64,000 nucleotides of DNA, taken from assembly GCA_018780035.1 (NCBI GenBank), contig JADMKE010000003.1, forward strand, positions 82,753 through 146,752, written 5' to 3'. The notes under the pieces are model-generated. The model had not been told where the DNA came from. It was given only the letters and a program-made list of their open reading frames with translations, and made no database searches. Source of the stretch: Candidatus Sericytochromatia bacterium (GTDB taxonomy: Bacteria > Cyanobacteriota > Sericytochromatia > UBA7694). The position numbers and the translations under genes are program-made. Positions 7,788 to 59,575 of this stretch are shown here, one piece after another (positions within the stretch are counted from its first letter, which is position 1; each line of letters begins with the position of its first letter).

Positions 7788-7896
7788 AAAAAATCCTTTG
7801 GCTTTTTTGCTAATGACTAAATCTATTATGCCTATTTCAGGCCTCAGTCTTTCTTACAAAGTTAAGAATTTAGTCCAAGTTTAAACCCGGTTGAAT

Positions 7897-11321: not shown

Positions 11322-11398
11322 ATTACTCAAGTGGTGGATGGCTGGGTGTAAATCAAATCAAGTCCATTCAAGACAAAAAAAAACAGGAGTTCCAACCT

Positions 11399-16484: not shown

Positions 16485-16569
16485 ATTCTTCCAGTTATTT
16501 TAGCACCCACTCACGCGCAAAGTGGCCTGTTTTGGTATATTAGAAGCAATCTGATCAGGAGTTTTTTCC

Positions 16570-25684: not shown

Positions 25685-27755
25685 TTTTGCGTTTGTTGAC
25701 CGGTTTGGCAAAGAGCAAGATGGTCTTTGGGTTTGGGGTTGCCGGTTCGGCCTGAATCGGTTGGTTTGAGGCATTTGGACGTGGACGTATCCTTTTGCGC
25801 TCGCTGCCAAGACGGCCCTTGAGGAATTGAAGATCTTGCAAGACCTGTTGTTCCATGCCTGAGGTCAGGGTCGCAGTACAGCTCAGACATTGCTCCAAGG
25901 CCTGTTGTGCTTCTGCTTCTTTGCCCTGTTCGAAATAACCTCGGGCCATCAAAAAATAGACCACGGCTTCGCCGCTGCCCACAGGTAATTGAGAAATATA
26001 CATCAGGGTTTTAATCGCCTCTTCGAGTCGCAGTGCCTCGCGATAGGCAAAAGCCAAATAGAGGTAGGCATCCATTTGCTCTGGTTTACACAAAATGGCG
26101 TGTTTATACATTTCAATTGAAGCTGCCTGCAGATTCAGGCGACCATAGACAAATCCCAAGAGTCGGTAGCTGATTTCCCATTCGGGTGCATGAATCCAAT
26201 TGATCTCGTTTAAGAGTGCTTCAAGTAAATGTCGGGCCTGGGCCAGTTCACCCAAATGGTAATAGAGATTGGCCAGGTTGTGGCGGGTTTCGAATGAGCC
26301 CGGAAAATCTTGGTTGAGTTGCTGATAAAGGCGCAGGGCTTCGTGATAATAGCCCAACTCATGGTACAGCGATGCCAGATGATAAACTGTGTCAAAGGTC
26401 TGGGGCTGAAGCTCATAGGCCTTGCGGTAATGGTCGAGCGCCGCTTCTTTTTGACCTTCGAGATAATAGAGATTGCCCGCTTCAGTAAAAGGGGGTTCCC
26501 AAGTCTGGTCGAGTTGGATCAGGTTTTGAAATTGGGCCAGGGCCTCGTAACGCCGATTGAGCAATTGCAATAAACAGCCCATTTCAAAGGGATAAAGCAA
26601 ATTATTGGGGTCGAGTTGGTGGGCCTGCTCGACCAAGGAAAAAGCCGCTTCGATGAAGCCTTCGGCCTTTTCGATTTTGCAAAGAGCAAAATAAACGGCG
26701 GGATCGCGTTCTTGCAATTCGAGAATCCGCTCATAACAACGCCTTGCACGGGCCCACTGGGCCTGTTCTTGGTAAATTTGTCCCAACATTTTAAGCGAGG
26801 GCAGGTGGTAGCCGTTTTTTTGCAAAGCCAGCAGACAATACTCGCGACCGGCGTCCGCTTCTTGGTATTTTTCCAGGCGCAGACAGCCTTCCGCATAATA
26901 AATATCGGCATTTTCAAGCAGTTTTTCGATCTCTTGTGCCAGTTTGCGTGCTGTGGGAATGCGGTAATCCCGGTCTTTTTGTAAACTGTGGTACACCAAT
27001 TCTTCTAAACAGGGGGGTACCCAGGGATTGGCACTGCGAATGCGGGGCGGCGACTGGGTGAGCAGGTTTTGAACCAAGTCATTGAGTTCATCGCCTTCAA
27101 AGGGCAATTGGCCAGTCAAGAGCCGGTAAAAGACCACCCCCGTCGAAAAAAGGTCGGTGCGGTAATCCAAATCGGCATCACCCATAATTTGTTCGGGTGA
27201 CATATATGCCAATGACCCTTGCAACATGCGGGTTTGGGTCAGGCTTGGGGCAAAGACCTGACGGGCACAGCCAAAATCTGTCAGAAAAATCTGTTTTTGA
27301 TCATTGATCAGAATGTTTTCGGGTTTGATATCTCTGTGAATCACACCCTGATCGTGTAGATAGTGTAAGGCCTGACAGAGCTGTTGAATCAGAATCAGGG
27401 TTTCGAGCAGGGAGAGAGCGTGTTGGCTCTGCAGCAGGGTTTCAAGACTGGGGAAGGGTTTGTATTCCGTTACCAGACAAGGAAAACCTTCAAGGTCAAA
27501 GACATCCAAGGCGGGAACAATTCGGGGATGGCTGAGAAAATGGTGAATTTCACATTCGCGTCGAAAGCGCAGCAATTGCTCTTCGAAACTCAAATTGGTA
27601 CGGGAATCTGGCTGAAAGAGCTTGAGATGGACTTTTAATCCATGGGTATCACGCCCCAGAAAGAGGCGACTGCCTGAACGGGCAGGCAACTCAGCCAAGA
27701 TGGAATAATCTTTGATCATCCATCCCGTTGTGGTGCAAATAATTGGTTCCTGCAT
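25674..27755 (-). CDS. Serine/threonine protein kinase with C-terminal TPR repeat array
   Basis: 693 aa. Kinase motifs HRDIKPENILI, DFGCAR and AYMSPEQ, followed by multiple TPR-like repeats. Confidence 0.85.
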   Translation of the reverse strand: MQEPIICTTTGWMIKDYSILAELPARSGSRLFLGRDTHGLKVHLKLFQPDSRTNLSFEEQLLRFRRECEIHHFLSHPRIVPALDVFDLEGFPCLVTEYKPFPSLETLLQSQHALSLLETLILIQQLCQALHYLHDQGVIHRDIKPENILINDQKQIFLTDFGCARQVFAPSLTQTRMLQGSLAYMSPEQIMGDADLDYRTDLFSTGVVFYRLLTGQLPFEGDELNDLVQNLLTQSPPRIRSANPWVPPCLEELVYHSLQKDRDYRIPTARKLAQEIEKLLENADIYYAEGCLRLEKYQEADAGREYCLLALQKNGYHLPSLKMLGQIYQEQAQWARARRCYERILELQERDPAVYFALCKIEKAEGFIEAAFSLVEQAHQLDPNNLLYPFEMGCLLQLLNRRYEALAQFQNLIQLDQTWEPPFTEAGNLYYLEGQKEAALDHYRKAYELQPQTFDTVYHLASLYHELGYYHEALRLYQQLNQDFPGSFETRHNLANLYYHLGELAQARHLLEALLNEINWIHAPEWEISYRLLGFVYGRLNLQAASIEMYKHAILCKPEQMDAYLYLAFAYREALRLEEAIKTLMYISQLPVGSGEAVVYFLMARGYFEQGKEAEAQQALEQCLSCTATLTSGMEQQVLQDLQFLKGRLGSERKRIRPRPNASNQPIQAEPATPNPKTILLFAKPVNKRKSAV

Positions 27756-27894
27756 TCTGTTTCCGGGTCAAGCTATAACTGAAAAGGGGTCATTCCGCTG
27801 CTGCGAACCCAGCATAACATAGTTGGAGATCTGAGAATATAGCAAACGACACAATTGAAGTGACAGTTTGGAAATTTATCGATAAGGTAAGAAA

Positions 27895-28824
27895 TCATGG
27901 CTTCAATTGCGTCAAAATCCGCTCAGCTTGTTGGTGTAAAAGCGCCAATTCATCGCCATCTGCCCCTTGTGGTTGAAAGCGCAGATGATCGCAGTGGTGC
28001 AAATAAATTTCTAACTCATCCAGGAGGGCCTCAGCGACGCCCTGTGCTTTTAGCCAATTGACGATTTCTTGGCTGGTCAGCCCGCTGGGCAAATTTGCAT
28101 AATGCTGTCCCAATTCAATCCGAAACGCATTCCGCAAGGCTTCGAGCGAGTCAGGTACGGGCAAAATTGCATTTGCTTTCATGGCTGAAGCTGCCGGTGG
28201 ACTTGTCTCAACCGTAATGGTGACCCTTTCAAGCGGCTCATCTTTTTGTGCTTGATTTTGTCCCTGTTTATCTTGCGTCTTGACTTTTGGGCTGGATTTT
28301 CGGCGCAAAAGCCAAAGGCCAACAGCGAACACGGGCAAAATTCCAAACAGCAAAACCCAAAACCAGTTGCCCCCGCCTTGATCGGGTGGTGACTGAACCT
28401 TGAGGGTCAATTCATCTGAAAGCAAGACTTTGTCTTGATCATAACCCATGCTCAAAGGGGGGATTGGAAAATTACCTGTTTGCGTGGCAACCAGAATAAA
28501 GTGGTAGCGCAACAAAACCCGCACCTGATTGTTCTGGGTTGAAATATTCTGGCCGACCTGGCTTGAGAGCAGACTTAAACCCGGAATAATGGGAAACTCC
28601 GGGTTGGGGGTTTGTAACGTGGTCTGTGTGGCAGACATATCTTCAATTCGGTCGATGCGCAAATGCACCTGTTCCCCCACCTGGGCTGGGTTGGGTGAAA
28701 GTGTGGTTTTGAGCAGCACCTTAGCGCTGGCGGGCAATGCCACCAGCACCAGCACCAAAGCCAGAATCAGGGCGTTGAGGCCCTGAATCAGGAAACGCCT
28801 TTGCCTGCGACGCGTCGGATCCAT
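27895..28824 (-). CDS. Membrane-anchored hypothetical protein with BatD-like architecture
   Basis: 309 aa. N-terminal signal/TM, a central TM (WFWVLLFGILPVFAVGLWLL), and a basic patch after the TM. It overlaps the upstream ATPase gene by 37 nt. Confidence 0.3.
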   Translation of the reverse strand: MDPTRRRQRRFLIQGLNALILALVLVLVALPASAKVLLKTTLSPNPAQVGEQVHLRIDRIEDMSATQTTLQTPNPEFPIIPGLSLLSSQVGQNISTQNNQVRVLLRYHFILVATQTGNFPIPPLSMGYDQDKVLLSDELTLKVQSPPDQGGGNWFWVLLFGILPVFAVGLWLLRRKSSPKVKTQDKQGQNQAQKDEPLERVTITVETSPPAASAMKANAILPVPDSLEALRNAFRIELGQHYANLPSGLTSQEIVNWLKAQGVAEALLDELEIYLHHCDHLRFQPQGADGDELALLHQQAERILTQLKP

Positions 28825-30515
28825 TGGCTCATTTGCTCAGGGTTGTCAGACAGCGCCAAGGCGTCTGAACCGCTGATCACACAATTATCATAAAATTCAA
28901 ACAGCGACATATTGCCCGATTGCATGCCGTCGTAAGGGCTGGTCTCAATGACCTTATACAGCTCATTGATTTCATTGCGACGAATATAATCGCGGGAGTT
29001 GTCACCACGGGCATTGGGGGTGATCAACAAAATCTCGATTGAGCAGACGCGGCCGGGGCGATCCCAGCGTTTGAGCAGACGTTGCGAGATCGAGGCTCGA
29101 ATCGTCTCAGAGAGCTGCAAACGCACCTGTTCCTGCTCGTGGGGTGGGAAGGTATTGATGATACGGTTAATCGTCTGAACTGCGTCGTTGGTATGCAAGG
29201 TGCTTAAGACCAAGTGACCGGTTTCCGCCGCTTTGAGACCCGCGATAATCGTGTCTTGGTCGCGCATTTCCCCGATCAGGATGATATCCGGCTTTTGACG
29301 CAAGCCAGCACGCATACCCATCGGAAAGCTGAGCGAGTCGATTTCAATCGCCCGCTGGGTAAAGACGGAGTTTTTATTGGTGTAGACATATTCCACCGGA
29401 TTTTCCAGGGTCAAAACGTGACTCTGTCGATTTTGGTTGGCAAACTCGATGATGGAGGCCAAGGTGGTTGTTTTGCCCGAACCTGTTTGGCCGGTTACCA
29501 GAACCAATCCCAAACGTTCAAAAACCAATTTCTTGAGAATCTGGGGAATGATCAATACGTGGGTGGGCAAAGGATCGTTGGGAATCAAACGGAGAACCAT
29601 GCCGACTGTGCCCTGGGCCCAATAGACATTACAGCGGAAACGGGCCACACCCGGTACCGAAAAGGATGTATCCATTTCGCGGGTCTCTTCAAATTGCATA
29701 ATCTGCTCTTCGCTCAAGGCGCGGAAAGCGTAGTGCTGGGTGTCTTCTGCTTCCAAAAAGGTGAGAAACTCGGGGTGTGCCACAACATCACCCCGCAAGA
29801 CCCCCAGCGGACGGCAGGCCGCTTTAATATGGATATCGTCTGCGCCCCATTGCACCATGGCTTTGAGAATATTAAACAGCGAAGGAATATTCCGTTCGCG
29901 TTCGTATTCATCTTGCTGAAAGCCACTTTGATCCAACTCTTTGACTTCGGCGGTCATCGCCCTGAAACGGCTGTCGACAATTTCTTCAATATCCGGGCGC
30001 AGGGCTTCGAGTTCATTGCCCACCTGGTCGGGCATACCCAAAGGCTCTACGACCTTCATGAAGTTTTTGATTTCCAAATACTGGTCGGTGTGTCCCAGTG
30101 GACTGTCACCCAAATTGCGCATGATTTCGCGGAAGCCCGGCATTCTGTGATTGACAATGCCGTGAACAATTTCCATGGGAATAACCAGGTTTTTATTGGT
30201 GATCGGATTGGCCACCTCCAGGTAAACCCCTTCGATAATGGCATCGTCACCCGGCACGCTCGATTTGGTGCGTTGGTTGCGGAAGTGTTTAATACAATAG
30301 GGCTTTTTCTTGTCTTTGCACTCTTGCACCACTTCTTGCACGATCTGATCGTGAATTTGGCGCAATTCTAGATTGTCAAAGACACTGCGTACCGCAGGCA
30401 GGTATTTTTCCATCACCATGTCTCTCAACATGTTTTCACTCATCAGCTGGCGAAAATAGGCGGCAGTGGCGTCTAATTTCTGAGGAGAGAGCATATTCGG
30501 TAGATCTTGCGACAT
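28788..30515 (-). CDS. PilT-like type IV pilus retraction / secretion ATPase with ~200-aa N-terminal extension
   Basis: 575 aa. Motifs ADDIHIKA, Walker A GQTGSGKTTTLA, HVLTLENPVEY, GEMRD and His-box GHLVLSTLHTNDA. Confidence 0.75.
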   Translation of the reverse strand: MSQDLPNMLSPQKLDATAAYFRQLMSENMLRDMVMEKYLPAVRSVFDNLELRQIHDQIVQEVVQECKDKKKPYCIKHFRNQRTKSSVPGDDAIIEGVYLEVANPITNKNLVIPMEIVHGIVNHRMPGFREIMRNLGDSPLGHTDQYLEIKNFMKVVEPLGMPDQVGNELEALRPDIEEIVDSRFRAMTAEVKELDQSGFQQDEYERERNIPSLFNILKAMVQWGADDIHIKAACRPLGVLRGDVVAHPEFLTFLEAEDTQHYAFRALSEEQIMQFEETREMDTSFSVPGVARFRCNVYWAQGTVGMVLRLIPNDPLPTHVLIIPQILKKLVFERLGLVLVTGQTGSGKTTTLASIIEFANQNRQSHVLTLENPVEYVYTNKNSVFTQRAIEIDSLSFPMGMRAGLRQKPDIILIGEMRDQDTIIAGLKAAETGHLVLSTLHTNDAVQTINRIINTFPPHEQEQVRLQLSETIRASISQRLLKRWDRPGRVCSIEILLITPNARGDNSRDYIRRNEINELYKVIETSPYDGMQSGNMSLFEFYDNCVISGSDALALSDNPEQMSQWIRRVAGKGVS

Positions 30516-30721: not shown

Positions 30722-32434
30722 TTGCCGCCCCAGGAGTTTTGGATGTCTCAATTGCTTGTCTCCTGTTTAGACCCCGCCAAAAATGGCGAAGAAATCGTTT
30801 ATGCACAATGGCATGAAAACCCTGACAAACGTTTGCAACTGAGTGGGACAGAGGTCTTAAAACAGGTCGAGGCAGTGGCTGCAAGTTTGGCCAAGCGCTA
30901 CCCACCCCAGAGCCGTATTTTGCTCTTGTTTGAGCCCGGGCTTGAATTTCCTTTGGCTTTTTGGGCCTGCCTGCGTGCAGGCATGGTGGCCATTCCCACC
31001 TTTCCGCCAGCAGACCCGCGCACCCGCACACGTTTCTTGGGCATTGCCGAAGATGCCCAAGCCGTGGCTGTCTTGACTTCTTCGCCCCTGCTCAAACTCT
31101 CAAAATGGGTCAAGTGGCTGGTGGGGAGCCTGCGACGCATGCATTGGCATGCCTTGGAGGACCTGGCCGCTGAAGTCCCACAGGGCCAAGGACCTGCTTT
31201 GCCCAGCGAAAATGACCTGGCTCTTTTGCAATACACCTCGGGTTCGACAGGCAGCCCGCGGGGGGTAATGTTGAGCCATGGCAATGTCTACGCTAATTTG
31301 CTCTCACTGGTCGCACCTTGGCAAACCATGCCCGCTATCAAGGAACATATTGTCTCTTGGCTGCCGCTTTATCACGATATGGGCCTGATGGCGGGCATTG
31401 TCTTTCCGCGCTTTATCAACGCCCGCGCGACAACGTTTTCGCCTTTGTATTTTTTGCAAAAGCCCAAGCGTTGGCTGATGGCGCTGAGTGAAACCCAGGG
31501 TACTATCAGCTGTGCGCCCAATTTTGCCTTTGGTATGTGCCTAAAAAAGATTTCCGAAGAACAATTGGCAGGATTAGACCTTCGCCATTGGCGCATCTCT
31601 CTCAATGGCGCCGAAGCTATCAATCCCGAGACCCTGGAGCGCTTCGCTGAACGCTTTGCTCCCTGTGGATTTAAGAATACGGCTTATTACAATGCCTACG
31701 GTATGGCGGAAACAGCTGTGTTTGTGACAGGTGGAAAACCCCTGAACACCCCCGTTGTACGCAGTTTTGAACGCGAAGCCCTGAGTCAACACCACGTTGT
31801 TCCCAGCCCAGAGGGGCGTGTCATGGTTGGGCTGGGCCAAAGCTGGGCAGATACCCAGCTTTGTATTGTCGATCCCGAGACCTGTCAACGCCTGGGGCCC
31901 ACACAGGTCGGCGAAATTTGGATTCAGGGAGGCAGCGTCGGCTTGGGCTATTGGCGGCGCCCCGAAGAGACCCAAGCGACATTTGCTGCCGAAATTGCCG
32001 CAGAACCCACGGCCGGAAAATGGCTGCGCAGCGGTGATCTGGGGTTTATCTTTGAAGGTGATTTGTTTATCACGGGGCGGCGCAAAGAACTGATCATTTT
32101 GCAGGGGCAAAACCACTCTCCCCCGGTCATTGAACAGGCCGTCCAAACCGCCAATACCCACTTTCGCACGGGCTGTGGGGCGGCCTTTTCGGTAGGAGAA
32201 TCCCCTGAAAAACTAATTCTGGTCCAAGAAGTGCGCAATGAATGCCCTCTTTCTGCCTCTGAACTCGAAGCCATTGCCCGCAAGGCCTTGGCTGAAGCAG
32301 AAGGTTTGCACCTCGATGAATTGGTCTTGGTCGAGACAGGGTCCTTGCCCAAGACCTCCAGTGGCAAAATCCAACGTAATCTTTGCCAAAATGTGTATCT
32401 CAAAGGAAAACTAAAAAAATGGAAAAAACGTTAA
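30722..32434 (+). CDS. Fatty acyl-AMP ligase (FAAL-type AMP-dependent synthetase)
   Basis: 570 aa. AMP-binding motif LQYTSGSTGSPRGVMLSHGNV and a FAAL-like insertion region. An acyl carrier protein gene follows directly. Confidence 0.8.
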   Translation: MPPQEFWMSQLLVSCLDPAKNGEEIVYAQWHENPDKRLQLSGTEVLKQVEAVAASLAKRYPPQSRILLLFEPGLEFPLAFWACLRAGMVAIPTFPPADPRTRTRFLGIAEDAQAVAVLTSSPLLKLSKWVKWLVGSLRRMHWHALEDLAAEVPQGQGPALPSENDLALLQYTSGSTGSPRGVMLSHGNVYANLLSLVAPWQTMPAIKEHIVSWLPLYHDMGLMAGIVFPRFINARATTFSPLYFLQKPKRWLMALSETQGTISCAPNFAFGMCLKKISEEQLAGLDLRHWRISLNGAEAINPETLERFAERFAPCGFKNTAYYNAYGMAETAVFVTGGKPLNTPVVRSFEREALSQHHVVPSPEGRVMVGLGQSWADTQLCIVDPETCQRLGPTQVGEIWIQGGSVGLGYWRRPEETQATFAAEIAAEPTAGKWLRSGDLGFIFEGDLFITGRRKELIILQGQNHSPPVIEQAVQTANTHFRTGCGAAFSVGESPEKLILVQEVRNECPLSASELEAIARKALAEAEGLHLDELVLVETGSLPKTSSGKIQRNLCQNVYLKGKLKKWKKR

Positions 32435-32685
32435 AACCCAAGCGCAGCGAGCTTGAAAGTTGGTTCTTGAGCGAAATCGCTGAGCAGACCGAACGCGCTG
32501 TCTCAGAGATTGATCCCGAACAACCCTTTGCTGCTTTGGGATTGGATTCCACTGTGATAATTTCGCTCACGGGTGAAATGGAAGACAAATGGGGCTTGGA
32601 GTTGGATCCCACTTTGGTCTTTGAATACCCCAGCATTTCCCGGCTTTTGAGCTATTTGGAGGCAGAAGGTGTGGTTGCTGCCTGA
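32419..32685 (+). CDS. Acyl carrier protein / PCP (phosphopantetheine attachment site LGLDS)
   Basis: About 88 aa starting at MEKTLKP; the ORF track has it from 32383. Contains FAALGLDSTVIISLTGEMEDKWG. Overlaps the FAAL stop by 16 nt. Confidence 0.75.
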   Translation: MEKTLKPKRSELESWFLSEIAEQTERAVSEIDPEQPFAALGLDSTVIISLTGEMEDKWGLELDPTLVFEYPSISRLLSYLEAEGVVAA

Positions 32686-33886
32686 TCTCCTGCAGGCCCT
32701 GCAAATAGCTCAAATCCATTTGAGTGTGCAGGGGGGAGAATTACATGTTCGAGCCCCCCGTGGCGCCCTCACCCCTGAGCTGCAAAGGGGCATCCGCGAC
32801 ATGCGCGGTGAATTGCTTGCCCATTTGATGCCACTTGAAAAAATAACCAAATTCAGCCTGTTTTTCTTTGGCAAAGCCGATTATGCCCAGGCTCAGGGCT
32901 ACGAAAGCTTGATTCAAATTGCCAAACAGGCTGATCAATGGGGCTATGCGGGCATTTGGACTCCCGAACGGCATTTTGACTCGCTGGGGGGATTTTTTCC
33001 CAGCCCAGCGGTGCTGGCAGCCGCGCTGGCACGCGAGACAAAACAGCTGAAGTTGCGGGCTGGCAGTGTCGTCTTACCCCTGCATAACCCGATTCGCGTG
33101 AGCGAAGATTGGGCTGTGGTGGATCATCTCAGTGGAGGACGGGTGGAATTGTCGTTTGCCACTGGCTGGCACAGCCATGATTTTGCTCTGGCACCAGAAC
33201 ATTATGCGGATCGCCATGCGCACATGTACAAAAATATCGAAGCCGTCAGAGCGCTCTGGCGCGGCGAAAAACGTGAATTGCGTGAAGGCAGTGGGAGTAC
33301 CATTGCCATTCAGACCCACCCACGCCCAGTGCAAACAGAGCTGCCTATCTGGATCACCGCTATCGGCAATCCCGAATCGTATCAGAAAATTGGCTCAGTC
33401 GGAGCCCATCTTCTGACCTGTCTTTTGGATCAAGAAGTCGAAGAACTGAGCGCTAAACTCAAGCTCTACCGCCAAGCACTGGCGGAGGCGGGCCATGACC
33501 CCGCCCAGTTTCAAGTTTGCGTTTTTTTGCATACCTTTTTGGGCCGCGATCTCGCAACTGTGCGCGCCACGGTGGCTGAACCTTTAAAAGACTATTTGCG
33601 CAGCACCTTACACCTGCTGGGCAAACTGAGCCAAAGTGCGGGGCTTGAACTGAATCCCGAGGCCTTTTCCGCTGAAGATACCGAGACCCTTTTGGAATTT
33701 GCCTTCGAACGCTATTTCTCCCGCAGGTCCCTGATGGGGACTCCCGAAAGCGTGGCCCCTTTATTGCAAGCACTTAAAGCGGCAGGGGTCAACGAAATTG
33801 CCTGTTTGGTGGATTTTGGCCCCAGCCCTGAAGCCATTCTGGGCAGCCTGGAAATTTTAGCGGGCATGTTCTCCAACCCAGACTAA
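32669..33886 (+). CDS. Luciferase-like (LLM-class) flavin-dependent monooxygenase, natural-product (MupA/Atu3266-like) type
   Basis: 405 aa. FSLFFFG ... YAGIWTPERHF ... LPLHNPIRVSEDWAVVDHLSGGRVELSFATGW fits the LLM TIM barrel. Overlaps the ACP stop. Confidence 0.7.
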   Translation: MWLLPDLLQALQIAQIHLSVQGGELHVRAPRGALTPELQRGIRDMRGELLAHLMPLEKITKFSLFFFGKADYAQAQGYESLIQIAKQADQWGYAGIWTPERHFDSLGGFFPSPAVLAAALARETKQLKLRAGSVVLPLHNPIRVSEDWAVVDHLSGGRVELSFATGWHSHDFALAPEHYADRHAHMYKNIEAVRALWRGEKRELREGSGSTIAIQTHPRPVQTELPIWITAIGNPESYQKIGSVGAHLLTCLLDQEVEELSAKLKLYRQALAEAGHDPAQFQVCVFLHTFLGRDLATVRATVAEPLKDYLRSTLHLLGKLSQSAGLELNPEAFSAEDTETLLEFAFERYFSRRSLMGTPESVAPLLQALKAAGVNEIACLVDFGPSPEAILGSLEILAGMFSNPD

Positions 33887-33954
33887 ACTTGCTCCATGCT
33901 TGAAATGCGCAACCAGAAAATGGCATAATCTGAATATCCCTGAAGGAGCCTGCA

Positions 33955-34527
33955 ATGCCAGCCATTCAATTCTGCCCGGCCTGTGGAGGGCCGATCCAAG
34001 AACTGATTCCCGTCGGAGATAACCGCAAACGGCCAGTCTGCTCGGCCTGTGCACGGGTGCATTACCAAAATCCGAATGTGGTTGTGGGCTGTGTCGCTTA
34101 TTATCAAGAGGGCTATTTGCTCTGCCGGCGCGCCATTGAGCCCCGCAGCGGATTTTGGACCATTCCCGCTGGTTATCTTGAACTCAACGAAAGTACCGAA
34201 GAAGGGGCCTTGCGCGAGGCCCATGAGGAGTCGGGGGCCCATTTGGAAATCCGTTCACTTTTGGCTGTTTATAATTTGCCCCACCTCTCACAAGTACAAT
34301 TGCTCTATTTGGCTGAAATGACAACCCCTGCTCTGATGCCCGGTGAAGAGAGCTTGGAAGCTGAGATTTTTGCCTGGCAAGATATTCCCTGGTCAGAACT
34401 GGCTTTCCCGACGGTCTTTTGGGCCTTGCATCACGCCCGTTTGATGCGCACGAACAAAACGCTCAGCCCAGATTTGGCTTCGGAAAAGTTATTAAGACCG
34501 GCCCCCACCAACCCTTTAGAGGCCTAA
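33955..34527 (+). CDS. NUDIX hydrolase with N-terminal zinc ribbon
   Basis: 190 aa. CPACGG ... CSACARVHY zinc ribbon, then Nudix box GYLELNESTEEGALREAHEESG. Confidence 0.75.
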   Translation: MPAIQFCPACGGPIQELIPVGDNRKRPVCSACARVHYQNPNVVVGCVAYYQEGYLLCRRAIEPRSGFWTIPAGYLELNESTEEGALREAHEESGAHLEIRSLLAVYNLPHLSQVQLLYLAEMTTPALMPGEESLEAEIFAWQDIPWSELAFPTVFWALHHARLMRTNKTLSPDLASEKLLRPAPTNPLEA

Positions 34528-34530
34528 GGC

Positions 34531-35946
34531 GTGCGTGCCAAGGTTGCCGTAGCGGGAGCCAGCGGCTATATTGGCTCATGCCTGATTCAGGCGCTTTTGC
34601 CCCATTATGATGTGATTGCGCTCAGTCGTTCGCCCCAGGCCGATTCTCCCGGTGTGGAGTGGCGCTACTGTGATTTATTCTCCTTGCTCCAGGCCGAAAT
34701 GGGATTGCAGGGCGCCGATTACGCCTTTTACTTGGTGCATTCGATGTTGCCTTCGGCCCATTTGAGCCAAGGCCACTTTGCCGATATGGACCTGATTCTG
34801 GCAGATAATTTTGCCCGTGCCTGTCAACAGACGGGCGTTGAACATATTGTCTACCTTGGTGGGATTATTCCCGAATTTGGCGATCTCTCAAACCATTTGC
34901 GCAGCCGCCTGGAAGTCGAACAAACCCTGGCGGATTACCGTGTGCCAGTGACTTCGATTCGGGCTTCGATCATTGTAGGGCCCCGTGGGTCCTCCTTTCA
35001 AATTATTGAAAAGCTGGTCAAACGGCTGCCGATCATGCTTTGCCCGCCCTGGACCTTGACCCAAACCCAACCCATTGCCCTTGATGATGTGATCGCGATT
35101 TTGGTCAAAACCCTGGGACAAACTGAATTTTATTGGCGTTTCTTTGATGTGGGAGGGCCAGATATTCTCAGTTACCTCGATCTGATGAAAGAGACCGCCC
35201 GGGTCATGAATCTCAAGCGTTTGATACTGCCGGTTCCCTGGATGCCTGTCAATATCTCTCGTTTTTGGGTCAGTTTAATCGCAAGTGCCCCACCAGAATT
35301 GGTCAATCCCCTGGTGGAAAGCCTCAAACACCCTATGGTGGCGCATTCGCTTGAATTGCAAACCCAATTGGGGATTCAAGGTCTGGGCTTTTCTGAATCG
35401 GTCGAAAAAGCACTCTTGATTCAGAGACAGGCCCCCACTATCAGACGGCCCAAACGGGCCAAGTATACTGAAAGTCTGCAATTCTCAGACAATATTTATC
35501 CCGAATTGGAAAAAATTGTGCGTTCGGTCCAGCGTTTACCTTTGCCTGCTGGCAAAAACGCCCTCTGGATCGCCGAAAAATACACCCTGTGGTTGCCGCG
35601 TTTTTTGCATCCCTTTGTGCGGGTCGATGTAGACAGTCAGCGCACCTGCCGGTTTTATCTCAAGGGTATTCGTTCGCCCCTGCTCGTGCTCAAGTTCTCA
35701 GTCGAACGCAGCAATTTACACCGCACACTTTTTTATATCACCGGGGGCCTTTTGGCCAGCCGCAAAACCCGCCTGCGCGGTCGACTGGAATTTCGCGAAG
35801 TTTTGGGGCAAAATTACGTGATTGCAGCCATTCACGATTTTTCCCCCAGTTTGCCCTGGTTCATTTATAACTGGACCCAGGCTTTGATGCACCTCTGGGT
35901 GATGCACGGTTTTCGCCGCTACCTGCGCTCGCTGGATGTGATGTAA
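34531..35946 (+). CDS. NAD(P)-binding SDR/epimerase-family protein with C-terminal DUF2867-like domain
   Basis: 471 aa. Rossmann fold VAVAGASGYIGSCL and a long C-terminal extension. Starts 3 nt after the NUDIX stop. Confidence 0.6.
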   Translation: MRAKVAVAGASGYIGSCLIQALLPHYDVIALSRSPQADSPGVEWRYCDLFSLLQAEMGLQGADYAFYLVHSMLPSAHLSQGHFADMDLILADNFARACQQTGVEHIVYLGGIIPEFGDLSNHLRSRLEVEQTLADYRVPVTSIRASIIVGPRGSSFQIIEKLVKRLPIMLCPPWTLTQTQPIALDDVIAILVKTLGQTEFYWRFFDVGGPDILSYLDLMKETARVMNLKRLILPVPWMPVNISRFWVSLIASAPPELVNPLVESLKHPMVAHSLELQTQLGIQGLGFSESVEKALLIQRQAPTIRRPKRAKYTESLQFSDNIYPELEKIVRSVQRLPLPAGKNALWIAEKYTLWLPRFLHPFVRVDVDSQRTCRFYLKGIRSPLLVLKFSVERSNLHRTLFYITGGLLASRKTRLRGRLEFREVLGQNYVIAAIHDFSPSLPWFIYNWTQALMHLWVMHGFRRYLRSLDVM

Positions 35947-35961
35947 GTTTTAAACCTTCAA

Positions 35962-37644
35962 CTAAAGTGGCAAAGCCTCTGATGTTGGCGATTTCATCAG
36001 AACATAAATCACCGTCGCAGCTGCTTCACGCAAATGAATGGCTTGAATGCCCAGATTTTCAAAGACCTCCCGGCCTTTCAGATCGTTGATCACCGAAATC
36101 AGTCTTACCTCTGGGTTGATCTTTTTGACGATTTGACAGACACGCAAATTCAGCCAATCGTCTTCGGAGGTTGTGATCAAGGTGGTGATATTTTTGAGTT
36201 GATGGAGTGCATCTTTGTATATTTTTTCTTCACGGGCGTCAGCACTGATCACATAGACGCCTTCTGAGCTCAGTTTTTTTAGCGATTCCAAGCGCTGGGG
36301 ATCATTTTCAATTAAAATAATTCCCTCTTTTTGGGTCGCCTTGAGCTGCTCTATCAACTTTTTGCCCACGACACCGCCACCCACAATCAAGACGCTCGAA
36401 GGCGCGATATCCAAGATTGAAGCCATATACTTTGCACCTGCTCCTTCAATAATTACCGTTATCAAGACGGTCATAAAGACCATACCGCGGATGATGCCAC
36501 TGCCTTCAATCCCATAGGCATCCATTTCCAAACTAAAAAAAGTGGCCGCTGAGGCTGCGACAATCCCCCGTGGGCCCAACCAGGATATAAAGATCCGCTC
36601 TCGCCAGCTGATCTTTTCAAAGGCGGTGGAGAGCAGAACCCCCACAGGCCTGACTACCCACATCAGAATCAACACGCAGAGAGCCCCCGGCAAACCAATT
36701 TTTTTCAATAAATTGAGGTCCAAACTGGCTGAGAGCAACAGAAAAACAACTGTAATCGATAATAAAGTCAGATCCCCTTTAAACTCTTTGATTGAGCTTT
36801 TATGGGGAAAAGGGGTGTTGCCAATAATCATTCCCGCCACAGCCACAGAAGCAATTCCGCTTTCATGGGACACCAATTCACCGAGCATATATGCCGAAAC
36901 GGTTGTGCCCAAAACCAACATGCGCACGACTTCGCCCCGCATGGGGCTAAACAGGGTCGCTGTGCGACGGGCCAACCAAGCACAAAAGGAACCTGTGGCC
37001 GCACCCAAGACCAAGCTGAGCAACATGTTTTTTAAAATAGGCATTAAACCCGCGTCGGGCCCATGACTGGCGCCCGCAATAATATAGTTAAAAATGCTGA
37101 CAGCGGCAATCACACCCACGGCATCCACCAAAACCGCTTCGGTTTCGAGAATCGTTTTGACTTTTTGGCTGACATGAATGCGGCGCAAAATGGGCGCGAT
37201 CACCGTCGGCCCCGTTACAGAAACCAAACCGGCATACATCAAGGCAATCCGCCATTCGATGCCCAATAAATGACTCGTCACCCACGCCATGGCTAAAATG
37301 GTGATCAGGACATTGAGCGTAATCAAACCCAGAACACTGACCAAATGGTGGCGTAGATGATTAAAATCTATCATCAAGCCCCCTTCAAAAACCACAATCG
37401 CCACCGCCACGGCAATGATCGCGCGAATGCCTACCGAACTGTAAACATCGGGGTTGATCCAATTGAGCCCCTGTTTGCCCAATAAACTGCCGAAGAGCAA
37501 AAGAAAGATAATGGCAGGTAAAGATGTTTTGTCTGAAAGGATTTGGGCGATGGTGCCCAAAAGGAAAATCAAAGCTGTTGTCAGAACTATGACCAAAGAG
37601 GGATAGTGAGAAAGATATTCTCCAAGTTGAGTCAAATCATTCAT
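35962..37644 (-). CDS. Cation:proton antiporter (CPA family) with C-terminal RCK/TrkA-N domain
   Basis: 560 aa. About 11-12 TM helices, then the Rossmann motif VLIVGGGVVGKKLIEQL. Confidence 0.75.
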   Translation of the reverse strand: MNDLTQLGEYLSHYPSLVIVLTTALIFLLGTIAQILSDKTSLPAIIFLLLFGSLLGKQGLNWINPDVYSSVGIRAIIAVAVAIVVFEGGLMIDFNHLRHHLVSVLGLITLNVLITILAMAWVTSHLLGIEWRIALMYAGLVSVTGPTVIAPILRRIHVSQKVKTILETEAVLVDAVGVIAAVSIFNYIIAGASHGPDAGLMPILKNMLLSLVLGAATGSFCAWLARRTATLFSPMRGEVVRMLVLGTTVSAYMLGELVSHESGIASVAVAGMIIGNTPFPHKSSIKEFKGDLTLLSITVVFLLLSASLDLNLLKKIGLPGALCVLILMWVVRPVGVLLSTAFEKISWRERIFISWLGPRGIVAASAATFFSLEMDAYGIEGSGIIRGMVFMTVLITVIIEGAGAKYMASILDIAPSSVLIVGGGVVGKKLIEQLKATQKEGIILIENDPQRLESLKKLSSEGVYVISADAREEKIYKDALHQLKNITTLITTSEDDWLNLRVCQIVKKINPEVRLISVINDLKGREVFENLGIQAIHLREAAATVIYVLMKSPTSEALPL

Positions 37645-37738: not shown

Positions 37739-38464
37739 GTGAAGGGGCTTTTTTTCATGGCCGAATCTGAAATACTCGGAACGCTCTTAATTAAACAGGG
37801 TAAATTGACCCATGAGCAACTCACTGAAGTTTTGGAGTATCAATGCCGTTTGCCCTCTTCGCAAATGATGAGCCTGGAAGAAATCTTGATTTCTTTTGAA
37901 TATGCCTCCGAAGCAGATATACAGGCTTTAAGACCCGAATTGTCTGCTCCCAATACGTACACCAATGTTGAGAATACTTTTGCAGCCCCAGCCGTCTCGA
38001 ACGATATGGAGACGATGTTAACTCTGAACCCCCCCAAAAAGCTCGGGCAAATCATGCTCGAAGAGCGCCTACTTGAAGAATGGCAATTGACCCATGCTCT
38101 CTTGGCCCAAAAAGAGCCCACCAACCAAGGTAAGCGTTTGGGCAGCCTACTACTGGAATTGGGCTATGTGGCCCAGGATAAATTATCTCGGGCTTTAAGC
38201 ATTCAATTGTCTGGGGCAGCAGCCCCTTATTTTGAACCGCTTCCGCCCAATGTGCCTAAATTGGGCGAACGACTGGTCAATGCAGGGATTATTCAAGAGT
38301 GGCAATTATTACATGCCCTGACCCTGCAAAGAGAAAACACAGATAAAAAAACAGGCTTGGGCACCTTATTGGTTCGACTCGGTTATGCCCCACAGGATGT
38401 CGTGGCCAAAGCCTTGGGTGAACAAGCCCAAGACAAACAAGACGACAGAGCTATTGGAAAATAA
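37739..38464 (+). CDS. Protein of three tandem T2SS-E N-terminal-like (GSPII_E_N) repeats
   Basis: 241 aa. Repeats LGTLLIKQGKLTHEQLTEVLEYQ, LGQIMLEERLLEEWQLTHALLAQ/LGSLLLELGYVAQDKLSRAL and LGERLVNAGIIQEWQLLHAL/LGTLLVRLGYAPQDVVAKAL. Confidence 0.55.
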   Translation: MKGLFFMAESEILGTLLIKQGKLTHEQLTEVLEYQCRLPSSQMMSLEEILISFEYASEADIQALRPELSAPNTYTNVENTFAAPAVSNDMETMLTLNPPKKLGQIMLEERLLEEWQLTHALLAQKEPTNQGKRLGSLLLELGYVAQDKLSRALSIQLSGAAAPYFEPLPPNVPKLGERLVNAGIIQEWQLLHALTLQRENTDKKTGLGTLLVRLGYAPQDVVAKALGEQAQDKQDDRAIGK

Positions 38465-39443
38465 CCACACCTGTCACATTGTCTTTGGGCACAATTGTAA
38501 ACGTTGTTGAACTGGCAGTGCCTTCAGCTGAAGACACGGTGATCACACCCGTGGTGGCTCCCTGGGGAATCGTTACCGTCACGCTATTGGCTGTGGTTGC
38601 TGTGATTGTGGCTTGAGCTCCCCCTGAAAAAGTGACAGTGGCTGCACTGGTTTGGGGATTAAATCCGCTCACTGTCAGGGTCACAGACTCCGAGACACTG
38701 CCCTGAGCAACACTCAAGGCTGTCACTTGCACAGTCGTGCCTGCTGGCGTTCCACCACCACCGGCGGGAGGGGCTCCTCCGCCACCGCCACCGCCGCCGC
38801 CGCCACCACCGCCGCCTGAGGATGGCGCACTGATGACTACTTCGATCTCAGCTTTGACAGTGGGATCGGACTTGAGGCTAACCACCACTTTGTAGCTGCC
38901 CGAGGTGGTTTTTGAGCGAATGACACCTTTGTTATCCACGCTGATCAGGCTTGGCGAAAGCGACTCCCAATTAAATTCGTATTTGGTTAAATCCAAATTA
39001 TTGCCATTGAGATCTTGAAGCAAGAGCTGAATGGACTGTTCGCTGCCAAAGCCAGACAATTCGACCCGGCCCGGAATTGCCCGTAATTTTAATGATGGAA
39101 CCGTATCACTCACACCTTTGACAGGTGCCTCAGGGGGTGTTTTTTCGGGGATTGTTGCCACCGGTGGCAGGGCTGTCGTTTTACTCGCCCCTGCAGGGCC
39201 CGTACTTCCGCCATCTCCGATGCCCCGATCATTGGGCGTGGGTGAGGGGACAGGCACCCGCTGCTGCTCAAAATTGTCTTGAATATTGGGATTGTTGGCA
39301 TTGCGGTTGCGTTCACTGAGATTCACCAAACCGCTCAGTGGCGCGCCATAATTCAGCTGAACATCGCTGCAGCTCCCAAAGACAAGCAAGCTAAGCGTTA
39401 ATGCAGTAAAAAGGTGAAAGGGTTTTTTTATGTTACTCATCAA
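38451..39443 (-). CDS. Surface lipoprotein with Big_2 Ig-like domain, poly-Gly linker and C-terminal IPT/TIG domain
   Basis: 330 aa. Lipobox LVFGSC, a Big_2-like segment, a G15 run, and IPT/TIG at the C-terminus (VTLTVSGFNPQTSAATVTFSGG...). Its start overlaps the upstream gene stop by 4 nt. Confidence 0.65.
   Translation of the reverse strand: MMSNIKKPFHLFTALTLSLLVFGSCSDVQLNYGAPLSGLVNLSERNRNANNPNIQDNFEQQRVPVPSPTPNDRGIGDGGSTGPAGASKTTALPPVATIPEKTPPEAPVKGVSDTVPSLKLRAIPGRVELSGFGSEQSIQLLLQDLNGNNLDLTKYEFNWESLSPSLISVDNKGVIRSKTTSGSYKVVVSLKSDPTVKAEIEVVISAPSSGGGGGGGGGGGGGGAPPAGGGGTPAGTTVQVTALSVAQGSVSESVTLTVSGFNPQTSAATVTFSGGAQATITATTANSVTVTIPQGATTGVITVSSAEGTASSTTFTIVPKDNVTGVVIFQ
38751..38817. repeat. 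GC-rich simple sequence (CCN/GGN)n tract encoding the Gly15 linker
   Basis: ccaccaccaccggcgggaggggctcctccgccaccgccaccgccgccgccgccaccaccgccgcc, a candidate site for slipped-strand length variation. Confidence 0.6.
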
Positions 39444-42400
39444 TTATTGACCGGCAAAGGTTGATAGCGATCGATTCGGCGAATGCCCCAACTTGTATCC
39501 GCTATATACAGTGTACCATCTGGGGCGAAGTCAATGCCTCTCGGGCTGCTAAATGTGGCCACGGTCAATGGTTTCCCTTCTGCTAAACCACTGGAGCCTG
39601 TTCCGGCGATCCTTGAGATCTGGCCAGAGGGGGTGATTCTGTAAATTTTAGAAGCACTGTTAAAGCCAAAATTACAGCAGGTAGCGGGCACAAAGACATT
39701 GCCATAGGGATCTACGCGGATCTCATGCATTTCCACCCAGGGGAGAGAATCCGAATTGGGCGGTGCAAAGGAATAACTCAAGGTCGCAAAAACCGTGACT
39801 TGGTTTGTCTGGAAATTGATTTTGCGAATCTGGTAATTATTCACATCGGCCACATAGACGTTGCCATCGCCATCGATGCCCAGGCCTTCCAAATGTAAGA
39901 AGCGGGCATCAGCAATCGGGCTCACGGGTGTGGCTCCGGCAGCACCCGCTGGCGCCCCCCCTGCAATAATCTGCACGTTGGGGGTGAGGGTTTTATTCAG
40001 ATCGTAGAGCTGGGTCTCTGCCAAGGTGGGCAAGGTATTGAGATTGGCAATTTTGGCCACAAAGACATTGGTGACGGTTGTGGTCGCATTCGGGGGATCT
40101 GTACAGGTTACAAACAATTCGTTGTTTTTGTTGATTTCGATCCCTTCTGGACCAGGCAAACGGGCGATGACCTGTACTTTTCCATCGGTGGTTATCTTTC
40201 GAATGGCGTGGTTACTGGTGTCTGCCACATAAATATTGCCAAAGCTGTCATTGGCCAAATCTTCTGGGCCAGAGAAACGGGCATTGGCCAAGGTGGTCTC
40301 TTTGAGTTTATCTGCGGGGAAAAACAATTCATCTTTGCGGAATCCCGCTGTACTGTCGCCAGAGACCCACTGGTTTTGGCCTGCCTGGTTAAATTTGTAA
40401 ATTTTGTGGCTGAGCGAGGCGATGTAAATATTGCTGTTGTGATCAACATTGATCCCGTGTGCGTTTTCGATTGCAAAGTTGATATCGGTGCGTGTCACCA
40501 GCGCCGCGTTGCCAACAAAATTGATCACGTCTTTGTACAACAGAGAAGAAACGGCACTGCCCGCTGGGTTAAAAATAGTCACGGTATCAAGCGGGTTGCC
40601 CACAGGCGGGGTGTTGATTGTAATTTGCGTGGAACTGTTGATGGTATAGGCGTTGGTGTTTAGGACAGTGGTTCCAATCATGACGACGGAACCTGTCACA
40701 TAACCTGTGCCTGTTAAAACAATCGGTCCGGTGGGTTGCAGGGGATCATTGGCAACATTTGTGATCGTCGGTGGTTTGAGCACTTGGAATTGGGTGGCAG
40801 AGTTACCGGATCCAGCTGGGGTGGTGACACTGATCGGCCCATCGGTGGCCCCGGCAGGCACCGTTACGGTGATTGTGCCATCATTATTAACCGTAAAGGT
40901 GGGGGCATTGACCCCATTAAATTGAATTTGGGTGGCACCTGTAAAATTGGCCCCAGTTAAAGTGACCTGATTCCCAATGGCTGCTGTCGGAGTGAAACTG
41001 CTGATCACAGGGGTGCTGACTGTATAAGTGGGGCTCTGCAGTGGATTGCCCCCATTAGGCGTGACCGTAATTGGCCCTGTTGTTGCTCCAGCAGGCACTG
41101 TCACCGTCACCGTATTGGCAGTTGTGCCGGTAATTGTAGCCGGTGTCCCCCCATTGAAAGTGACCGTTGGATTGCTCGTCGCAGGATTAAAGCCAGAGAC
41201 AGTAATGGTGACGCTGTCATTGGGTTTTCCACCAGGAGAACTGAGTGCAACCACTTGTTGGGGAATGGTCAGATTGTTGGCAGAGGTGCCCGTACCCAGG
41301 GGGGTTGTCACCTGAACAGGGCCTGTCGAAGCGCCCGGTGGAATGGTAAAGGTCAGGGTATTGTCGTTGACAACGGTCACGTTGTTTACGGCCAAACCAT
41401 TGACAGTGACTCCCGTTGCGCCAGTCAAATTGGCGCCTGTCAAGGTGACGGTGGCTCCCACACTGGCTGAGTCTGGTGTGACTGCGCTGATCACTGGGGT
41501 ATTGATGGCATAATTTGTGCTCTGCAGCGCTGTGCCCCCTTGGGGGGTGACGGAAATGGGGCCTGTGCTTGCCCCAGCAGGCACCGTGACAACCAAGGTT
41601 CCTGCTGTGGTCAGAGCGGTATTGATCGTGGCGGTTACGCCATTGGAGAAAACCACAGTCGGATTTTGGGTGGCATCAAAGCCTGAAACCTGAATACTGA
41701 GCGTATCTCCAACCTTGCCACCCGGACTGCTGAGTGAGACGATCCGGGTATCTACCGTAAAATTAGCCGTGTTGCTCAGTTTGCCATTGTTTGTCACTTG
41801 GATTGGCAGGGTGCCGCTGATACCGGGCGGCACCTTGACCACCAGCGAAGTGGCGGTTGACAATTCCACTGTGGCGGTGACGGTTCCAAATTTAACCACA
41901 TTGCCACCGGCAGGGTTAAAACCATCCCCACTGATTGTGATTTGGCTACCACTGGCCCCTTGTGTGGCACTTAATGCTTTCATGACAGGAGGCAAAACAA
42001 GGGGATTGTTGGTCGTTCCTTCAGTCAAGGTAACATTGCCATTGGCGTCCACTGTCAGATTTGTGCGGCTGCTGACGCCGCCATTCAGTCCGTCAATTTT
42101 GGCTATCGCCTGCCAGGTTCCCGGAATAATTTGGGGCAAATTGCCCGTGTCTTGACCGGCTGCAATCGAAATCGGCGCAGAAGCCGGATCGGTGATCTGC
42201 AATTGAATTGCTGAATTAAAAGCCACATTATTGGGCGTTCTCACCACCACATTCAGATTGGCCATCTGTTTGATCCAGGCCCCAGGGGGGGGATCCCCCT
42301 GATTGAGGGTGGGTACCTGACCATTGTTGTCCACCAACGCCTTGGCGAGAGCTTCAGCATTGACCCGCGAGGGATGCAGGGCAAAGGTATTGCCCCCCAC

Positions 42401-48823: not shown

Positions 48824-48826
48824 ACA

Positions 48827-55351: not shown

Positions 55352-55505
55352 TCGTGCATTAAAAGACATCTTTTACAGCCATTTTCACAGACAGGGCTCA
55401 GCTCTGTCGCTTGGGGGTATTTTGCTTTTGGTGCTGGGGGGAGTCAGCGCCTGCAATTCAACTCCTTTGAGCCCCGCAGCCAGTCCCAGTCCGATGCAAA
55501 CACTC
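54521..55505 (+). repeat. Direct repeat copy 1 (~1 kb; near-identical to 58573-59575)
   Basis: A long tract identical to copy 2 apart from a few substitutions and one 9-bp indel. It spans the 3' half of paralog A and the 5' end of paralog B. Confidence 0.85.
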
Positions 55506-57350: not shown

Positions 57351-57459
57351 ACTGGCTAAATAACTCGATTTTTTTCTGAACACGACAACAATCGCCTGAT
57401 CATACCCAGATTTTTGCCAATATGGGAACATCCACTGCCATAGCAGCGTCTAGAGAAAA

Positions 57460-59403: not shown

Positions 59404-59575
59404 TCGTGCATTGAAAGACATCTTTTACAGCCATTACAGCCATTTTCACAGACAGCGCTCAGCTCTGTCGCTTGGGGGTATTTTGCTTTTGGGGCTGGGG
59501 GGAGTCAGCGGCTGCAATTCAGCTCCTTTGAGCCCCGCAGCCAGTCCCAGTCCGATGCAAACACTCCTCCCTTCG
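58573..59575 (+). repeat. Direct repeat copy 2 (~1 kb; near-identical to 54521-55505)
   Basis: Offset 4052 bp from copy 1. Contains the YSH 9-bp insertion (cattacagc) relative to copy 1. Confidence 0.85.

Follow-up and report, generated by a model that had tools for sequence, protein, structure and literature searches.

The window considered here is a stretch of 64,000 nts from a Candidatus Sericytochromatia bacterium (assembly GCA_018780035.1, contig JADMKE010000003.1, positions 82,753 to 146,752 of the forward strand). Between positions 30722 and 35946 it contains five open reading frames (ORFs) on the plus strand, all confirmed in the ORF listing and its translations. They encode a fatty acyl-AMP ligase (hereafter FAAL), a stand-alone acyl carrier protein (ACP), a luciferase-like monooxygenase (LLM), a zinc-ribbon NUDIX hydrolase and a short-chain dehydrogenase/reductase (SDR). 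A first-pass annotation had proposed these five domain assignments, which were confirmed with Pfam and NCBIfam hidden Markov models, and had gathered the five genes in a single biosynthetic operon. Comparison with related genomes indicates instead that the five genes are two units, a FAAL-ACP-LLM trio and an independent NUDIX-SDR pair which adjoins the trio only in the clade of the window. It appears fairly probable that the trio loads a fatty acid on the ACP for oxygenation by the LLM, the NUDIX-SDR pair being a separate unit. The features of the region are the following:

30743 (ATG) or 30722 (TTG) to 32434, plus strand: FAAL, 563 aa from the ATG, matching AMP-binding and FAAL NCBIfam models
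32419 (ATG, the likelier start) or 32383 to 32685, plus strand: ACP, 88 aa from 32419, PP-binding domain with an LGLDS motif
32669 to 33886, plus strand: LLM, 405 aa, matching TIGR04020, Bac_luciferase and TubC_N
33900 to 33929, plus strand: promoter-like element TTGAAA-18-(TG)CATAAT, from a consensus scan
33955 to 34527, plus strand: NUDIX hydrolase, 190 aa, Zn_ribbon_Nudix and NUDIX domains
34531 to 35946, plus strand: SDR, 471 aa, Epimerase and NAD_binding_10 matches in its N-terminal part

The five genes had been described as joined by overlaps or 3-nt gaps. This is correct for three of the four junctions, the FAAL and ACP genes overlapping by 16 nts, the ACP and LLM genes by 17 nts and the NUDIX and SDR genes being 3 nts apart, whereas 68 nts separate the LLM gene from the NUDIX gene. 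The ATG form of the FAAL (563 aa) is identical to the NCBI entry MBT9544134.1, named “fatty acyl-AMP ligase”, the LLM corresponds in a 403-aa form to MBT9544136.1 and the SDR is an exact match to MBT9544138.1. Names given by the Prokaryotic Genome Annotation Pipeline already exist for these genes and are generic. The G+C content across the five genes is unremarkable, a scan of the window against Rfam gave no match, and a search of the accessible literature found no paper on a FAAL-ACP-LLM trio as a cluster.

The FAAL matches the Pfam AMP-binding family (E 3.6e-56). Its best NCBIfam models are FAAL families (E 5e-124 to 1e-91), compared with 1e-41 or worse for fatty acyl-CoA ligase models, all of its NCBIfam scores lying under the equivalog cut-offs. 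In the PDB, the 15 best matches are all FAALs, led by 7R7F (4.6e-112) and followed by FadD23, FadD32, FadD28 and the E. coli structure 3PBK, and acyl-CoA ligase structures score far below them. FAALs have a specific insertion in the N-terminal domain, which prevents the conformation for CoA ligation. The alignment with 7R7F, itself a FAAL, runs through the putative insertion region (residues ~330-370 of the window protein) with gaps of just 1-2 residues. By its sequence, the protein is an adenylation enzyme of the ANL superfamily which lies nearer to FAALs than to acyl-CoA ligases. The acyl-AMP would be transferred to holo-ACP and not to CoA, as suggested by the conserved overlap of 13-16 nts between the FAAL and ACP genes.

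The ACP scores 54.1 bits against PP-binding (PF00550; cut-off 20.8). The LGLDS context of its serine, on which the first-pass annotation relied, is retained in the alignment of orthologues, where G-x-D-S is invariant. The protein ends in a short tail, LEAEGVVAA, which is kept as LEAEGV(V/L)(A/T)(A/V) in the trio-bearing clade and differs in the related locus L002. This tail is a candidate docking motif.

The LLM scores 456.8 bits against the MupA/Atu3671 model TIGR04020 (cut-off 244.45), with residues 62-398 covering positions 1-338 of the 341 in the model, and also matches Bac_luciferase in Pfam. The best PDB match is 6KET, the oxygenase (Ox) domain of PuwE (E 1.6e-106 over residues 58-397). 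The runners-up are generic LLMs and luciferase (1e-21 or worse), the LuxA chains reaching 60-65 bits. These scores identify the protein as a stand-alone MupA/Atu3671-type, flavin mononucleotide (FMN)-dependent LLM. From its homology to the PuwE Ox domain and from the literature, it would be expected to oxygenate a substrate bound to a carrier, with FMNH2 and O2.

A feature overlooked initially is a TubC_N docking domain at residues 6-53 of the LLM (approximately nts 32684-32827), which scores 40.1 bits against a cut-off of 26. In the AlphaFold2 model, the N-terminus is composed of a helix (4-13), two strands (17-21 and 24-28) and two further helices (36-44 and 46-53), with a predicted local distance difference test score (pLDDT) of 83-92, and is followed by linker residues 55-57 with a pLDDT below 50. 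The predicted structure is therefore that of the alpha-beta-beta-alpha-alpha, or beta-hairpin, docking fold joined to the catalytic domain by a flexible linker. Domains with this fold recognize short motifs at the C-termini of carrier proteins, one motif being able to recruit several partners (PMC9113145). Together, the domains, the conserved coupling of the genes and the PDB matches (7R7F, FadD23 and FadD32 for the FAAL, 6KET for the LLM) sustain the original proposal of a FAAL feeding a stand-alone ACP which is coupled to an LLM of the type found with nonribosomal peptide synthetases (NRPS) and polyketide synthases (PKS).

Homologues of the LLM at 59-91% identity all share the TubC_N plus LLM layout, and those with a taxonomic name belong to Sericytochromatia and Obscuribacter. 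All five genes are found together only in the clade of the window, namely the window itself, L001 (LLM 72% identical), in which both flanks are also present, and a single species represented by L003/L004 and L091/L092 (LLM 64% identical), in which the upstream flank is different. A PhyH dioxygenase gene located upstream of the L003 FAAL gene was considered as a conserved partner and was dropped, as no homologue of it was detected in the window by tblastn. Overlaps of 13-17 nts at the FAAL/ACP and ACP/LLM junctions are kept in the window, L001 and L003, that of the FAAL and ACP genes being again 16 nts in L001. The three ORFs are intact and their overlaps preserved in at least three diverged species (LLM identity 64-91%). 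Between relatives, dN of the trio is 0.2-0.35 against a saturated dS, so that dN can be said to be far below dS in a qualitative sense only. Since the genes are intact and dN is low relative to dS, the trio appears to be maintained. It nonetheless evolves faster than the neighbouring housekeeping genes (dN 0.21-0.35 versus 0.05-0.15).

A different arrangement is found at two loci whose LLMs are 56% (L002) and 57% (L005) identical to that of the window. In L002, the gene order is ACP, LLM and a synthetase of 2,678 aa, while in L005 the LLM gene precedes a synthetase of 2,712 aa. Both synthetases read TubC_N-C-A-PCP-KS-AT-KR-ACP-TE, corresponding to a one-module NRPS followed by a one-module PKS. 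A neighbour-joining tree of the LLMs makes the trio clade and the L002/L005 clade sisters. Two orphan docking-LLM genes from other Sericytochromatia genomes, L006 (10001-11218; 45% identity) and L007 (10001-11194; 44% identity), fall in another docking-LLM clade and have no ACP, FAAL, NRPS or PKS gene within 10 kb. The LLM domains embedded in megasynthases form the outgroup. Eighty further LLM loci from GTDB genomes were also searched with the five window proteins, and strong FAAL homologues were detected in approximately 14 of them, always within or next to megasynthases.

The NUDIX and SDR genes do not regularly accompany the LLM. Adjacent genes for a zinc-ribbon NUDIX and an SDR (SDRs 57-62% identical) are present in four related loci, L087, L096, L097 and L098, near which no FAAL, ACP-LLM or LLM gene is found. 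In genome GCA_053550095.1, the ACP-LLM genes lie on contig 11 (L002) and the NUDIX-SDR genes on contig 5 (L087), and are thus physically separate. Conversely, no NUDIX or SDR homologue was found within 10 kb in any of the 80 other LLM loci. A metagenome scan with the SDR returned 5 loci, two of which were again from the L003 species. The genes upstream of the pair vary, with fabG-acpP-fabF in L087 and L096, pgk in L097 and a divergent phosphorylase gene in L098. Downstream of it, a Na+/H+ antiporter gene is present in L087, L096, L001, L003 and the window. Since the antiporter gene travels with the NUDIX-SDR pair, the adjacency of pair and trio in the clade of the window is explained as ordinary lineage synteny. 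The NUDIX-SDR-antiporter block is conserved in Sericytochromatia-like genomes (33955-37644 in the window, 5108-13249 in L087 and 3821-9819 in L096) and stands directly behind ACP-centred lipid genes, which are fabG-acpP-fabF in two relatives and FAAL-ACP-LLM in the clade of the window.

The 68-nt spacer between the LLM and NUDIX genes contains the promoter-like element TTGAAA-18-(TG)CATAAT at 33900-33929, recognized by in silico consensus scan. L001 retains both its -35 and its -10 hexamer. In L096 and L098 the NUDIX gene is preceded by comparable -35/-10 pairs, and in L003 by a TAGAAT. In the latter locus, the spacer is 736 nts long and contains three tandem repeats of ~133 nts (11368-11677) with a 33-nt core, AAAGCCTTGAAGTCGTCAAAACGGCAAGAGGGC. 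An IS605 OrfB/TnpB-like gene is located near these repeats (15792-16976). The NUDIX-SDR pair is probably transcribed from its own promoter, judging by the conserved hexamers. The division of the five genes in two units rests on this conserved element, on the occurrence of the pair without the trio, on the separate contigs of GCA_053550095.1 and on the 80 LLM loci devoid of it. Dispersal of the genes in related genomes, which the first-pass annotation had itself named as grounds for abandoning the five-gene operon, is hence what is observed for two of its members.

The NUDIX protein matches PF00293 (46.3 bits) and Zn_ribbon_Nudix (PF14803; 51.7 bits), its translation shows an intact Nudix box of the GX5EX7REUXEEXGU type, GYLELNESTEEGALREAHEESGA, and an N-terminal zinc ribbon of CxxC...CxxC form, CPACG...CSAC, and its PDB match is 3CNG (E 6.6e-47 over residues 4-155). 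A role as an acyl-CoA- or ACP-cleaving enzyme was considered and set aside for want of family support, the best NCBIfam model reaching 31.8 bits against a cut-off of 158.

In the SDR, the Epimerase and NAD_binding_10 matches are restricted to the first ~110 residues, and the N-terminal NAD(P)-binding Rossmann domain shows the motif GASGYIG (GxxGxxG). The tail had been described as DUF2867-like. Pfam does not detect DUF2867 (PF11066) there even at E<=10, whereas E. coli YbjT (b0869; L099), which carries DUF2867 at 332-463, is 29% identical to the SDR over residues 1-295 (BLASTP, E 2e-37) and aligns end to end by hhalign with a profile of 24 members of the SDR family, with the C-terminal motifs GRLxF...P..Y...HL in common. 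The description is therefore defensible. In the AlphaFold2 model (pLDDT 87), a Rossmann domain is followed by a disordered linker (307-325) and by a domain with a beta-sheet and a long helix (330-470). The Foldseek matches are NDUFA9 and SimC7, at the top, and triphenylmethane reductase, in a search dominated by the Rossmann domain and in which the C-terminal domain was not identified. In the PDB, weak matches to NDUFA9-like complex I subunits alone were obtained. Across the 24-member alignment, the classical catalytic Tyr-x3-Lys is absent, and its position is occupied by S120-x-H122-L-x-S125-R126, which is invariant. Furthermore, Pfam gives no match to NAD_binding_4, the thioester-reductase type. 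Full-length members at ~50% identity are found across Bacillota, Myxococcota and Planctomycetota, among unrelated neighbours and with no NUDIX gene. The protein is thus an atypical SDR of the YbjT family (COG0702), with a putative DUF2867-like domain at its C-terminus, and a role as thioester reductase is without support.

In the mechanism proposed for the trio, the FAAL would adenylate a free fatty acid, probably long-chain, and then move the acyl group to the phosphopantetheine arm of the ACP. The LLM would dock on the ACP through its N-terminal beta-hairpin domain, presumably by recognition of the conserved C-terminal tail of the ACP, and, with O2 and with FMNH2 from a reductase whose gene lies elsewhere, would oxygenate the tethered chain. 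The substrate of the LLM would most plausibly be an acyl-ACP starter. This is suggested by L002, where both the LLM and the synthetase possess a TubC_N domain and the sole free carrier C-terminus is that of the stand-alone ACP.

The likeliest reaction would be a 2-hydroxylation, by analogy with the LLM domains of the puwainaphycin, microginin and palmerolide systems. In puwainaphycin, whose acyl chain is of the 3-amino-2-hydroxy type, the 2-hydroxyl is attributed to the Ox domain of PuwE acting on the carrier-bound chain (PMC4219810), and in palmerolide an LLM domain coincides with an alpha-hydroxylation (PMC8739492). For the micD gene of the microginin cluster, domain annotation of an LLM is all that is reported (PMC9594780), and the part of this domain in hydroxylation is our own inference and not a claim of that paper. 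Hydroxylation at C2 of the tethered acyl chain is accordingly the favoured analogy-based option, in which the chemistry of these domains is extrapolated to an unactivated acyl thioester. The hydroxyacyl-ACP would finally be passed to an acceptor encoded outside the window, which may be a lipid acyltransferase or, on the model of the sister clade, an NRPS/PKS with a docking domain.

Several observations weigh against this reading. The precedents for LLMs concern polyketide intermediates or thioesters of beta-keto, beta-amino or aminoacyl type, and not a plain saturated acyl thioester, hence the C2 regiochemistry is an extrapolation. LadA-type LLMs, for their part, hydroxylate unactivated termini. 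The tail of the ACP has no basic residue and extends over just ~8-9 residues, its recognition by the docking domain being a prediction. Among the ORFs of at least 150 aa in the 64 kb, Pfam identifies no phosphopantetheinyl transferase, flavin reductase, thioesterase or acyltransferase, nor any condensation or ketosynthase (KS) domain (the absence of the last two had been noted before), so that the cassette is incomplete here. As regards the separation in two units, wherever the trio was seen (the window, L001, L003/L004 and L091/L092) it has the NUDIX-SDR pair behind it, and the position of the pair behind fabG-acpP-fabF in L087 and L096 might point to a function connected with ACP or lipids. 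In addition, no terminator-like site was found in the LLM/NUDIX spacer, therefore read-through co-transcription of the trio with the NUDIX-SDR pair, and a functional link between them, are possible.

The last of these points would agree with the five genes forming one operon and pathway, in which the SDR, acting after the FAAL, ACP and LLM, converts the acyl chain by reduction or release to an aldehyde or alcohol, with the NUDIX protein in an accessory role. The five genes lie on the same strand and adjoin in each trio-bearing genome examined, the spacer is free of terminator-like sites, and a GxxGxxG site for NAD(P) is present in the SDR, whose N-terminal domain is similar to the ketoreductase SimC7. 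However, the pair lives without the trio in four related genomes, including on another contig of the genome which carries ACP-LLM, and is missing from 80 of 80 other LLM loci. The SDR family is ~50% identical in unrelated phyla among different neighbours, its catalytic Tyr and Lys are replaced by an invariant His and Arg, and it is not of the NAD_binding_4 type. Finally, the spacer holds a conserved promoter-like element and extends to 736 nts in L003. A single five-gene pathway is thus improbable, and the formation of an aldehyde or alcohol, among the products put forward in the first-pass annotation, is without support, the SDR belonging to a widespread YbjT family in which YxxxK is replaced by H...SR. 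That annotation was largely right in what it observed. Its interpretation holds for three of the genes and is wrong, or at least unsupported, for the other two.

The exclusion of a lipopeptide, which had also been advanced, is not established either. In the sister clade, the LLM gene is directly upstream of an NRPS-PKS with a matching docking domain, hence a partner synthetase may be encoded elsewhere in the genome. The trio could then be a detached initiation cassette whose hydroxyacyl-ACP docks on the beta-hairpin domain of a C-A-PCP-KS-AT-KR-ACP-TE synthetase encoded elsewhere and yields an N-(hydroxy)acyl amino-acid-derived product. This proposal specifies further what becomes of the product, and agrees with the chemistry described above. 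The ACP-LLM-synthetase and LLM-synthetase arrangements of L002 and L005, the sister position of the trio clade, the docking domain retained on the LLM and the ability of one short motif to recruit several docking partners (PMC9113145) speak for it. Against it, no such synthetase is encoded in the window, up to ~30 kb to each side, nor at distances of up to 10 kb in L001 and L003. When the docking-plus-C region of the L002 synthetase was used as a protein query, 12 distant matches were obtained, without the query's own protein, and this search is uninformative either way on a synthetase in the trio lineage. A detached cassette of this kind is a real possibility, although we regard it as rather unlikely.

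Very unlikely, by comparison, is that the trio is the leftover of a lost NRPS-PKS cluster whose product is no longer useful. The lack of partner enzymes nearby, the orphan docking-LLMs of L006 and L007 and the higher dN of the trio (0.21-0.35, versus 0.05-0.15 for the neighbours) would be expected of such a remnant. Yet the three ORFs and their overlaps are intact in at least three diverged species, with LLMs 64-91% identical, dN is far below a saturated dS, and the catalytic and carrier motifs are retained. The preferred reading remains that of a trio which loads and oxygenates a fatty acid, next to a separate NUDIX-SDR unit.

The trio is built from well-known parts and is an uncharacterised variant, stand-alone and equipped for docking, of known FAAL/ACP starter-unit cassettes. 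In the JamA-JamB-JamC alkyne cassette, and in CylA/CylB with the halogenase CylC, a fatty acid is activated, tethered to a dedicated ACP and modified on the carrier by a trans-acting enzyme before being handed over, which is the logic proposed for the trio. The tailoring enzymes are different, a membrane desaturase or a di-iron halogenase being used by the Jam and Cyl systems, which belong to large PKS/NRPS clusters, and a flavin LLM by the trio. Also among the closest systems are PuwC (FAAL) and PuwD (ACP) of puwainaphycin biosynthesis, and the FAAL and ACP of the microginin mic cluster, where a FAAL likewise loads a stand-alone ACP. The Ox domain of PuwE (6KET) and the trio LLM are members of the same TIGR04020 family. 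However, the LLM of puwainaphycin and microginin biosynthesis is a domain inside a PKS/NRPS megasynthase, acting after KS extension and beside an aminotransferase, whereas that of the trio is a free-standing polypeptide carrying a docking domain of its own, and the 64 kb are devoid of KS, aminotransferase and NRPS. The namesakes of the family, MupA (mupirocin) and Atu3671, are located in polyketide or siderophore clusters, and their likeness to the trio LLM rests on the score of the family model.

As for the docking, known pairs of a short linear motif and a beta-hairpin domain (TubB-TubC, Kj12B-Kj12C and enacyloxin Bamb_5917-Bamb_5915) combine a domain of alpha-beta-beta-alpha-alpha type, a flexible linker and a catalytic domain, as is predicted for the trio LLM. 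They likewise involve a free-tailed, stand-alone carrier protein, and in the trio the ACP gene is directly upstream of the LLM gene. A review of docking domains names C, E, Cy, TE, MT, reductase and halogenase partners, and mentions neither an LLM nor a use outside assembly lines (PMC9113145).

The LuxAB/LuxCDE system shares with the trio the TIM-barrel LLM fold and an AMP-forming acyl-activating enzyme. In contrast to it, the trio has no LuxB partner, LuxC reductase or LuxD transferase, its LLM is of a secondary-metabolism subfamily, and a lux-like light-emitting system was rejected as being without support. Comparison is less informative for the neighbouring pair. The SDR and E. coli YbjT have the same length, a two-domain layout and a shared HLRxR motif, but YbjT and 3CNG are themselves without known function, and no mechanism for the SDR or the NUDIX protein is obtained from them.

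A more ambitious proposal, which we hold to be quite doubtful, is that the trio gives these non-photosynthetic Cyanobacteria (Sericytochromatia) a self-contained way to hydroxy-fatty acids, independent of any assembly line. The docking domain, normally employed within NRPS/PKS megasynthases, would have been kept to couple the LLM to a dedicated ACP, the chain would be transferred to a lipid of the membrane or envelope and not to a peptide/polyketide line, and the NUDIX/YbjT-like pair, which stands behind fabG-acpP-fabF in relatives, might join the same ACP-linked lipid metabolism. Should the mechanism proposed above for the trio prove right, the trio would represent a minimal three-protein system for the study of beta-hairpin-docked delivery of an acyl chain to a flavin LLM, free of any megasynthase, and potentially a portable hydroxylation cassette. 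The trio contributes one more case to the biosynthetic repertoire of Sericytochromatia, which is little studied, and has no bearing on any long-standing open question. The locus also illustrates that same-strand adjacency and short spacers do not by themselves define a pathway, since two of the five genes belong to another conserved unit.

Some other regions of the window deserve mention. Upstream of the trio, on the minus strand, positions 24512-30515 encode a Peripla_BP_6 protein, a Ser/Thr kinase with TPR repeats, a BatD-domain protein and a T2SSE ATPase with an N-terminal extension of ~325 aa. This block is in the same order in L001 and is not upstream of the trio in L003. Three DUF4388/PatA_N proteins are encoded within 15 kb (37739-38464, 43325-45076 and 51647-52867), of which one also has a receiver domain and another a GAF domain. 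In their vicinity are the genes for a TIG/NHL-repeat protein of 1,235 aa (39440-43147) and for the T2SSE-type ATPase (28788-30515). At 1974-8487, a minus-strand run encodes a DUF6929 protein, a 631-aa Rce1-like CAAX protease protein, a 627-aa B12-binding radical SAM enzyme, a 370-aa ORF without Pfam match and a protein with a prepilin-type N-methylation motif, and may be a peptide-modification or pilin-related set. At 48089-49840, a 577-aa minus-strand ORF without Pfam match overlaps almost wholly with a 337-aa plus-strand ORF which has a weak DHO_dh match. Lastly, five consecutive plus-strand ORFs of 544-668 aa at 53357-62832, four of which have weak matches to the Ig-like Big_5 domain, look like a tandem array of paralogues encoding surface or secreted proteins.

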